From IMG/VR virus record IMGVR_UViG_2778261252_000011: a DNA stretch of 42,392 nt, one strand, 5' to 3'. This document shows positions 17,122 to 17,601 of the stretch, in pieces. This stretch comes from a virus (taxonomy: Duplodnaviria; Heunggongvirae; Uroviricota; Caudoviricetes). The notes beneath the pieces are model-generated. The model did not search any database. It was given only the letters and a program-made list of their open reading frames with translations, and was not told the origin of the DNA. The translations under genes were made by a program, and so were the position numbers. How positions within the stretch are numbered: the first letter of the stretch is position 1; every line of letters starts with the position of its first letter.

Positions 17122-17150
17122 TTGACGCAAAGTGTTGTTGCGATTGGAAT
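17122..17150 (+). promoter_or_regulatory. Candidate late promoter (PR'-like): -35 TTGACG, weak -10 TGGAAT
   Basis: Read directly; the -10 is a poor match, so this is tentative. Confidence 0.3.
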
Positions 17151-17241
17151 ATTAAATTGTATCATCGAAAACGGTTCTGAGGGGGAACTCTTCTTTGCTC
17201 GGTGATATCGCTCGGTGATATCGCTCCCCTGAAGAACCAAT

Positions 17242-17317
17242 GCCGACTTAGCTCAGTAGGTAGAGCAACTGACTTGTAATCAGTAGGTCACCAGTTCGAT
17301 TCCGGTAGTCGGCACCA
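17242..17317 (+). tRNA. tRNA-Thr (anticodon UGU), phage-type
   Basis: Hand-folded cloverleaf: acceptor GCCGACT/AGTCGGC, D-stem GCTC/GAGC, anticodon stem ACTGA/TCAGT with loop CTTGTAA, T-loop TTCGATT, 3' CCA encoded; one A-C mismatch in the T-stem. Confidence 0.8.
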
Positions 17318-17320
17318 TAT

Positions 17321-17395
17321 GCGGGTATCGTATAATGGCTATTACCTCAGCCTTCCAAGCTGATGATGCGGGTTCGATTCCCGCTGCCCGCTCCA
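17321..17395 (+). tRNA. tRNA-Gly (anticodon UCC), phage-type
   Basis: Hand-folded cloverleaf: acceptor GCGGGTA/TGCCCGC (one G-U), anticodon stem TCAGC/GCTGA with loop CTTCCAA, T-arm GCGGG-TTCGATT-CCCGC, 3' CCA encoded. Confidence 0.8.
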
Positions 17396-17601
17396 GTTAG
17401 AGTCTTTCAGTCTGCGATGATGGGAAATCCCGGAGTGACTGAAAGACGTTTAAGTTATGAATGATCGCTTTTTTTTGCAAAATTGCTGTGCAGAAATACT
17501 AACCTTCGGGCAGGCGATCATTCATAAGCACTCTGCTTTTATTCCGATTAACTGTGGGTGGTTTGTTGGATAGAGTGCTTTCCTTACTGTATATATTGTT
17601 T

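Follow-up and report, generated by a model that had tools for sequence, protein, structure and literature searches.

In an Escherichia coli prophage, two adjacent tRNA genes, tRNA-Thr(UGU) and tRNA-Gly(UCC), lie in the gap that separates the late antiterminator gene from the lysis genes; they match the host genes thrU and glyT and are flanked by a predicted promoter, structured RNA elements and a terminator. The array is probably a stable-RNA ‘moron’ of a Rac-family prophage, in which copies of host tRNAs serve tRNA dosage and a 13-bp tandem repeat in the leader is a slippage polymorphism.

The window (the whole stretch of DNA that was analysed, 42,392 nt) matches the RefSeq E. coli chromosome NZ_AP027971.1 over positions ~1300–37690 with one mismatch; over the first ~1,250 nt the two differ by an IS1 in that record which is absent from the window. 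The region, beside ttcA, is an intact lambdoid prophage of the Rac family, with intR, recET, racR, kilR, hok/sok, trkG and a complete set of head and tail genes. Both tRNA genes are annotated already in NZ_AP027971.1. The features of the gap and its borders are as follows.

16334–16876, + strand: Q-like late antiterminator gene, DUF1133 family (Pfam DUF1133, 357 bits)
16956–16997, + strand: tR′-like intrinsic terminator directly 3′ of the Q gene (13-pair stem, T-rich tail)
17086–17119, no strand assigned: imperfect tandem repeat rich in AT, 2.4 copies of ACATAAATAAAAAT, 5′ of the tRNA promoter (Tandem Repeats Finder, 85% matches)
17122–17127, + strand: TTGACG hexamer, 10 nt upstream of a better −35
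17138–17165, + strand: predicted sigma-70 promoter, TTGCGA-16 bp-TATCAT (scan score 9/12)
17173–17238, + strand: 5′ leader hairpin (minimum free energy −27.2 kcal/mol, z = −3.7)
17197–17226, + strand: 13-bp tandem repeat, 2.3 copies of GCTCGGTGATATC, within the leader hairpin tip (Tandem Repeats Finder, 100% matches)
17242–17317, + strand: tRNA-Thr(UGU), identical to host thrU (ARAGORN; Rfam RF00005, 73.8 bits)
17321–17395, + strand: tRNA-Gly(UCC), host glyT with C6 to U (ARAGORN; Rfam RF00005, 63.4 bits)
17402–17580, + strand: conserved three-hairpin RNA directly 3′ of tRNA-Gly (fold z = −6.6)
17603–17627, + strand: intrinsic terminator 3′ of the tRNA unit, ahead of the holin gene (GCCCGCTTTTGCGGGC, then a T run)
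17688–17903, + strand: class II (phage 21 type) holin, first lysis gene (Pfam PF04971, 121.5 bits)

The order of the landmarks is Q-like gene (16334–16876), terminator (16956–16997), tRNA genes (17242–17395) and holin gene (17688–17903), with a YdfR-family gene and then the lysozyme and spanin genes 3′ of the holin gene. The Q-like protein, which is named DUF1133 family protein in RefSeq, falls in PHROG 753 (‘anti-termination protein Q-like’) and has a weak match, above threshold, to the phage-21-type Q family (PF06530, Phage_antitermQ; 27.1 bits, cut-off 26). The cassette lies between a late antiterminator gene and a holin gene, downstream of tR′, which is the location of a lambdoid ‘moron’. 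A first-pass annotation of this DNA had placed the tRNA genes at such a Q-to-holin site and had drawn a parallel with Stx phages; the Q-like gene (Pfam, PHROG) and the phage-21-type holin gene as flanks uphold the former, and the latter is matched by phi467, where the same Thr-Gly pair occupies the Q-to-holin slot downstream of stxAB.

ARAGORN found exactly two tRNA genes over the 42-kb window, both on the + strand and with the anticodons tgt and tcc, and both exceed the Rfam RF00005 gathering score of 29 bits. The CCA is encoded at both 3′ ends (...GGCACCA and ...GCTCCA) and the two genes are separated by a spacer of 3 nt. The two intact tRNA genes with encoded CCA that had been claimed in the first-pass annotation are thereby borne out, by the kind of tRNA finder it had named as a check. 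Its label ‘phage-type’ is at odds with the comparison with K-12: the tRNA-Thr gene is identical to thrU (76/76) and the tRNA-Gly gene to glyT at 74/75 positions, the sole change being C6 to U in the acceptor stem, which turns the C6-G67 pair into a U6-G67 wobble. The anticodon stem-loops of both prophage tRNAs are those of the host genes, with no difference, and the host genes likewise encode the CCA. On this near-identity the cassette is derived from host tRNA genes and is not phage-type. The likeness stops at the tRNA ends, with flanks, promoter and leader unrelated to the host thrU-tyrU-glyT-thrT-tufB operon. In the host operon tyrU and a 116-nt spacer lie between thrU and glyT, whereas the prophage has 3 nt in this place and neither tyrU nor thrT; the host leader is a few nt long and has no hairpin. 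K-12 encodes the thrU- and glyT-type isoacceptors, both of them minor, once each. As the prophage tRNAs match thrU and glyT, the dosage of two isoacceptors can rise, with no new decoding capacity.

The elements that determine aminoacylation identity are G1-C72, C2-G71, G35 and U36 in tRNA-Thr, and U73, G1-C72, C2-G71, G3-C70, C35 and C36 in tRNA-Gly. These are retained in the prophage genes, tRNA-Thr being the same as thrU throughout and tRNA-Gly being changed only at position 6, outside the elements listed. Across relatives the 6:67 pair of tRNA-Gly is also found as C6-G67 and U6-A67, so that the U6-G67 of the window belongs to a compensated series. At 57 loci sharing the window-type leader, the tRNAs differ on average by 0.5–0.7% between pairs, the hairpin by 1.7%, the promoter region by 2.5%, the AT-rich spacer by 7.8% and the sequence close to pR′ by 11%. 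The compensated 6:67 series and the low tRNA diversity at these loci argue that selection has kept the tRNA genes functional, and both look intact and working. The prophage copies duplicate existing host genes and might on that account be taken for silent passengers or recent pseudo-copies without function. This is extremely unlikely in view of the high covariance-model scores, a tRNA diversity 10–20 times below that of the neighbouring non-coding DNA, the compensatory change in the acceptor stem and the retention of the Thr-Gly pair in most arrays. Among IMG/VR contigs with a thrU-identical gene, 66 arrays consist of Thr-Gly and 35 of Met-Lys-Thr-Gly, the others being variants of these, and the Thr and Gly genes are adjacent in 118/132 arrays. 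The U6 of the prophage tRNA-Gly is in addition a natural one-base tag, usable for direct measurement of prophage tRNA expression.

Searches of 5426 complete E. coli genomes with the 814-bp Q-to-holin sequence gave matches in 5421, through the host genes; the matching places number 7806, ~2,400 beyond one per genome, with a maximum of 7 in one genome. The sequence of the full gap was found in 16 complete E. coli genomes and the window-type leader in 184 E. coli genomes. The Thr-Gly pair is annotated in the same slot in the GenBank phages phi467, vB_EcoS-683R6, vB_EcoS-689R5, PhiR47_1, JLK-2012 and SerU-LTIIb. The Thr-Gly cassette is therefore common, is widespread in Escherichia lambdoid prophages and is annotated already in RefSeq and GenBank. 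As such the pair matters little, given that lambdoid phages are known from textbooks to carry tRNA genes in the Q-to-lysis gap and this exact pair has been annotated before. A search with the hairpin-tRNA junction against one genome per prokaryotic species gave a match in Escherichia ruysiae alone, and the module looks confined to Escherichia. The module was also present in two genomes labelled DH5alpha, which would hint at an origin in phi80, but these are 4.83 Mb assemblies and may not be standard DH5alpha.

The tRNAs of Stx and other lambdoid phages (ileZ-argN-argO of the 933W type; Thr-Gly of phi467, JLK-2012, SerU-LTIIb and PhiR47_1) occupy the same slot, are similarly tightly packed and also correspond to minor codons; the 933W-type phages are listed with three tRNA genes (PMC4631060). 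Unlike these phages, the prophage described here carries only the Thr and Gly genes, no toxin gene and a DUF1133-type Q. A literature search for ileZ, argN and argO found no papers. In other arrays the Thr-Gly pair comes after Met-, Lys-, Asn-, Ile- or Arg-type tRNAs, the promoter abuts the first tRNA and there is no hairpin.

The junctions between modules fall exactly at the ends of the tRNAs: no fewer than three downstream modules, unrelated to each other, start immediately behind the CCA of tRNA-Gly, and on the upstream side unrelated modules stop at the hairpin or at the 5′ end of tRNA-Thr. Such junctions would be expected if the tRNA genes were kept for reasons other than translation, either as recombination blocks in mosaic lambdoid genomes or as spares against tRNA-cleaving toxins of the host or of competitors, the latter in keeping with the anti-defence roles that have been proposed for phage tRNAs (PMC10264068). 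We consider this improbable. Conservation of blocks leads to recombination at them and is not explained by it, and evasion of anticodon nucleases needs a non-host sequence, whereas tRNA-Thr is identical to the host tRNA and tRNA-Gly differs from it only in the acceptor stem; the compensated 6:67 pair, moreover, speaks for selection on a tRNA that folds and works.

Codon use was compared between 48 prophage genes (10,279 codons) and 32 host genes (9,829 codons) from one 50-kb region of the same strain. ACA is used 15.0 times per 1000 codons in the prophage and 6.3 times in the host (2.4-fold), making up 154/586 (26.3%) of the Thr codons compared with 62/501 (12.4%) (chi-square p = 1.6e-8). GGA is similarly over-used, at 15.2 versus 7.2 per 1000 (2.1-fold), with a share of the Gly codons of 156/709 (22.0%) in the prophage and 71/726 (9.8%) in the host (chi-square p = 3.6e-10). 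This comparison, of prophage genes with a host sample, follows a check that had been named together with the suggestion that the tRNAs supplement ACA and GGA codons, and the enrichment of both codons agrees with it. The suggestion loses in specificity, as the enrichment of AGA (7.3-fold), AGG (6.9-fold), AUA (3.3-fold) and CGA (2.7-fold) exceeds that of ACA and GGA, and the cassette has no tRNA for any of these four codons. Supplementation of ACA and GGA by dosage is plausible and is not specific to those two codons. According to a published comparison, codon adaptation in lambdoid phages is neither better nor worse where two or three tRNA genes are present than where there are none (PMC4631060). 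In the reading preferred here, the tRNA copies most likely raise the supply for ACA (together with ACU and ACG) and for GGA/GGG, codons used about twice as often in the AT-richer prophage genes as in the host.

The layout proposed for the unit is a sigma-70 promoter, a leader hairpin at the transcript start, tRNA-Thr, tRNA-Gly, the three-hairpin trailer and a terminator, followed by the holin gene. TTGACG had been put forward as a candidate promoter upstream of the tRNA genes. The hexamer is indeed present at 17122–17127; as a −35 it lacks a partner, as the sigma-70 promoter scan gave no acceptable −10 at 16–18 bp from it, and TTGCGA-16-TATCAT is the better candidate. Several leader families that are unrelated to each other have a TTGAC(R) hexamer at the same offset, 10 nt ahead of their −35. 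The predicted −10, which is TATTAT in some relatives, stops 7 nt before the hairpin in the window. In all 43 of 43 distinct upstream variants, the −10 of the best sigma-70 match (score 8–10 of 12; spacer of 16 bp in nearly all) finishes 6–8 nt ahead of the first G of the hairpin, and transcripts are therefore predicted to start at the base of the hairpin. In arrays headed by a Met-type tRNA a similar promoter directly abuts the first tRNA.

Together with the terminator at 17603–17627, this promoter suggests an autonomous unit which would also be read through by Q-modified polymerase. In the lysogen, expression would come from the unit's own promoter, and during lytic growth from Q-dependent read-through from pR′, whose region would lie at 16877–16955. 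The mature tRNAs would be freed by RNase P and 3′ trimming. The tR′-like terminator downstream of the putative pR′ region differs by 3.4% between pairs of the 57 related loci, compared with 7.8–11% in its flanks, and has a sub-threshold match to Rfam STnc370.

The leader hairpin consists of an outer stem (GGUUCU/AGAACC), a symmetric 2 × 2 GA/GA internal loop, an inner stem (GGGGGA/UCCCCU) and a variable tip, which holds the repeat, and it is separated from tRNA-Thr by 3 nt (AAU). IMG/VR contigs and E. coli genomes yielded 52 distinct leader variants, which form several families with hairpins of 47 to 92 nt overall and tips that are unrelated in sequence, the tip being the least conserved part between families. 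RNAfold returned the same outer stem, 2 × 2 loop and inner stem in essentially all 52 variants. When 27 distinct arm pairs were aligned by their arms only, standard pairs made up 89.5% of the cells, as against 28–69% with the partners slid. At the sixth outer pair, 13 have C-G, 9 have U-A, 4 have U-G and 1 has another combination, and the pairs of the inner stem alternate between G-C, G-U and A-U. G-U pairs are frequent, and therefore an RNA structure of the + strand is favoured. The support from covariation appears real but modest, with five of the outer pairs invariant and with search patterns that required parts of both arms.

In 1.87 Mb of loci, the hairpin motif is followed by tRNA-Thr in 121 of 125 cases, and two of the four exceptions have a truncated remnant of tRNA-Thr. 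An unbiased sample of thrU-identical genes contained 65 with the hairpin, 80 that directly follow another tRNA and a few that abut a promoter without a hairpin. From these counts the hairpin is linked to tRNA-Thr, yet dispensable. Two other interpretations of the leader were rejected. A leader peptide is at variance with the reading frame: leaders of the phi467 type have an ATG, but the frame varies between variants, and window-type leaders have no ATG. A decayed upstream tRNA would account for the likeness of the arms to a T-arm and CCA end, but the arms pair with one another and the acceptor partner is absent.

The 13-bp direct repeat had been reported in the first-pass annotation as 2.3 copies at 17197–17226, and Tandem Repeats Finder returned it to the base, in agreement with an independent repeat search (period 13, 17197–17226). 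There is no further exact copy of the 13-mer in the window; with up to 2 mismatches 5 matches occur, compared with 0.64 expected, and 0/100 shuffles reach 5. The repeat is not coding, as its unit is 13 bp. Among prophages otherwise identical over the 814-bp gap, the repeat is found in 1.3 (locus L004), 2.3 (window), 3.3 (L005) and 4.3 copies (L003), and two-copy alleles exist also in a second background (L006 and L007), which has another tRNA-Gly allele and another downstream module. Sixty carriers were sampled evenly from the 184 genomes with a window-type leader, and ~51 had one copy, 7 had two and 1 had three; these counts were taken from alignment lengths, with a check of the sequence at eight loci. 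The single-copy state is GCTC-GGTGATATC-GCTC, in which the unit is placed between 4-nt GCTC microhomologies, and a tandem unit with flanking microhomology is a classic substrate for slippage.

With perfect tandem copies, microhomology and integer polymorphism among near-identical sequences, the repeat is identified as a slippage-prone length polymorphism and not a regulatory iteron. Its origin would be a replication-slippage duplication between the GCTC microhomologies, in a hairpin tip that tolerates changes in length. It resembles bacterial VNTRs that arise by replication slippage in its perfect head-to-tail copies, GCTC microhomology and integer changes in copy number; it is unlike them in lying within a leader hairpin that is predicted to be transcribed and in having self-complementary copies, each of which lengthens the RNA helix.

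A role for the repeat as a Q-utilisation or pause element had also been raised. A recognition element for a protein or polymerase, be it a Q-utilisation site, a sigma-dependent pause site or an iteron, would be in line with direct and perfect copies downstream of a Q gene and with the palindromic GATATC core of the unit. In lambda, 82 and 21, the Q-binding and pause elements are at pR′, upstream of tR′. The repeat is ~320 nt past the stop codon of the Q gene and ~207 nt downstream of the strong tR′-like terminator, that is, neither beside pR′ nor before the terminator that Q overrides, and because the known elements precede tR′ the Q-utilisation or pause role is unsupported. Nor is the repeat conserved with its Q gene: downstream of one and the same DUF1133 Q gene the copy number runs from 1.3 to 4.3, a single copy is the state in most relatives, and homologous hairpins behind unrelated upstream genes (stxAB or a methylase) lack the 13-mer. 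A recognition element is thus very unlikely.

RNA folding predicts that the copies of the repeat pair with one another and that added copies lengthen the apical helix, the minimum free energy being −18.9 kcal/mol with one copy, −29.7 with two, −37.2 with three and −48.1 with four. Copy number may thus affect processing or stability through a stronger hairpin. On this basis the repeat could be a tuning knob or contingency locus, in which copy number sets hairpin stability or processing and hence the yield of mature tRNA. The perfect apical helix with its stepwise rise in predicted stability is what this would require, and the occurrence of 1- to 4-copy alleles in otherwise identical prophages and of two-copy alleles in two backgrounds, which points to recurrent change, is also in its favour, as is the variable length of the poly-G run in the same hairpin. 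Single copies are, however, dominant in the sampled carriers, the hairpin tip is the least conserved part, and some arrays carry the same tRNA without a hairpin, all of which make such a function doubtful. A slippage polymorphism in a tolerant hairpin tip is the explanation that is retained here.

The ~180 nt that follow tRNA-Gly are predicted to fold into three long hairpins, upstream of the terminator at 17603–17627, and this trailer is probably in the same transcription unit as the tRNAs. Forty-three distinct homologues were obtained from 73 loci, including one in phage HK639 (~77% identity). Across these homologues 98.3% of the pairs are canonical, compared with 43–47% when the partners are slid, and 13 pairs show compensatory double changes. 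The element is present, unannotated, in 542 of 5426 E. coli genomes. An Rfam search of positions 16800–17720 (E ≤ 1) returned the two tRNAs and sub-threshold noise, with leader and trailer unmatched, and the sequences of the trailer, leader and terminator had no match in the searchable full-text literature. The Pas sRNAs of prophages also adjoin holin genes; the trailer is not one of PasA-D.

The leader hairpin and the trailer appear to be conserved structured RNAs, undescribed in Rfam and in searchable papers, and they are the only potentially new material at the locus. A bolder model, which we hold as a tentative possibility, is that the tRNAs are part of a conserved RNA operon in which the hairpin and trailer would be functional RNAs released by tRNA processing and the repeat a hypermutable modifier of the hairpin. 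If true, the hairpin (GGUUCY-GA...GA-RGAACC) and the trailer could be determinants of processing or stability, regulators, or elements for read-through into the lysis genes. The 3′ETS-leuZ sponge is a spacer-derived RNA of a tRNA operon, and the prophage unit is alike in having conserved, structured non-tRNA segments which are predicted to be co-transcribed with tRNAs and released by processing; the likeness is a lead only, and the trailer is set apart from the known cases by being none of PasA-D and having no Rfam match. In other prophages the same tRNA is followed by a different, likewise conserved trailer.

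The tRNA-Thr(UGU)-tRNA-Gly(UCC) unit of the window is followed by one conserved element:

17402-17627: three-hairpin RNA plus terminator, directly 3' of tRNA-Gly, conserved

The predicted structure of this trailer in the window has a fold z-score of -6.6 and, among 43 distinct homologues, 98.3% of the trailer pairs are canonical and compensatory changes occur at 13 pairs. The trailer is carried by 542 of 5426 E. coli genomes as well as by phage HK639. A search of Rfam returned no match to the trailer, and its identification as PasA-D was ruled out by comparison.

A different conserved trailer family lies just 3' of the same tRNA-Gly in other prophages (loci L006, L009, L013, L016 and others), beginning with GCATTTGA... 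or GAGAAACA... and containing the terminator-like elements ggcactggcg...tttttt and cagtgctgattttttt. At these loci the CCA of tRNA-Gly is the exact point of the module junctions.

On the 5' side of the unit, a leader hairpin whose internal loop is GA/GA is kept across leader families (17173-17238 in the window; loci L010, L013 and L022-L124), and the hairpin tips are unrelated between families. The distance from the predicted -10 hexamer to the hairpin is always 6-8 nt, and that from the hairpin to tRNA-Thr is usually 3 nt, reaching at most 8. The poly-G run in the 5' inner arm of the hairpin is also of variable length (G5 to G9). Two of the compared loci carry an extra copy of the hairpin (L022, 2434-2493; L052, 7151-7209), followed by a truncated tRNA-Thr remnant (ACTGACTAAGC...), approximately 650 nt 5' of the intact unit. 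A TTGAC(R) hexamer also recurs 10 nt 5' of the predicted -35 in several leader families that are otherwise unrelated (17122-17127 in the window; same offset in L022, L050, L142 and others); a promoter scan identified no -10 partner for it.

In the longer Met-X-Thr-Gly arrays (IMG/VR loci such as L125-L213), the tRNA just 5' of tRNA-Thr, X, has a hypervariable anticodon loop and is conserved outside it. ARAGORN assigned X as Lys(UUU), Phe(AAA), Arg(UCU), Leu(UAA) or 'stop'(UUA), or could make no assignment.

In Rfam, a match below threshold to STnc370, a Salmonella sRNA (30.4 bits vs 54; window 16925-16991), spans a short stretch that runs up to and ends at the tR'-like terminator; its position is that of a short transcript derived from the inferred pR'.

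The cargo of the window is typical of the Rac family: the type I toxin-antitoxin RalA/RalR (1557-1735; 225 bits in Rfam), sok/hok (13863-14156) and the potassium transporter gene trkG (19454-20911), which has inserted between the lysis genes and the packaging genes and has a strikingly high AUA content of 35 per 1000. Comparison of window 1-1300 with L001 3125-4400, from an otherwise identical RefSeq prophage, revealed an IS1 in the latter, located between intR and xisR and absent from the window; of the 959 mismatches between the two prophages, only one lies outside this stretch.
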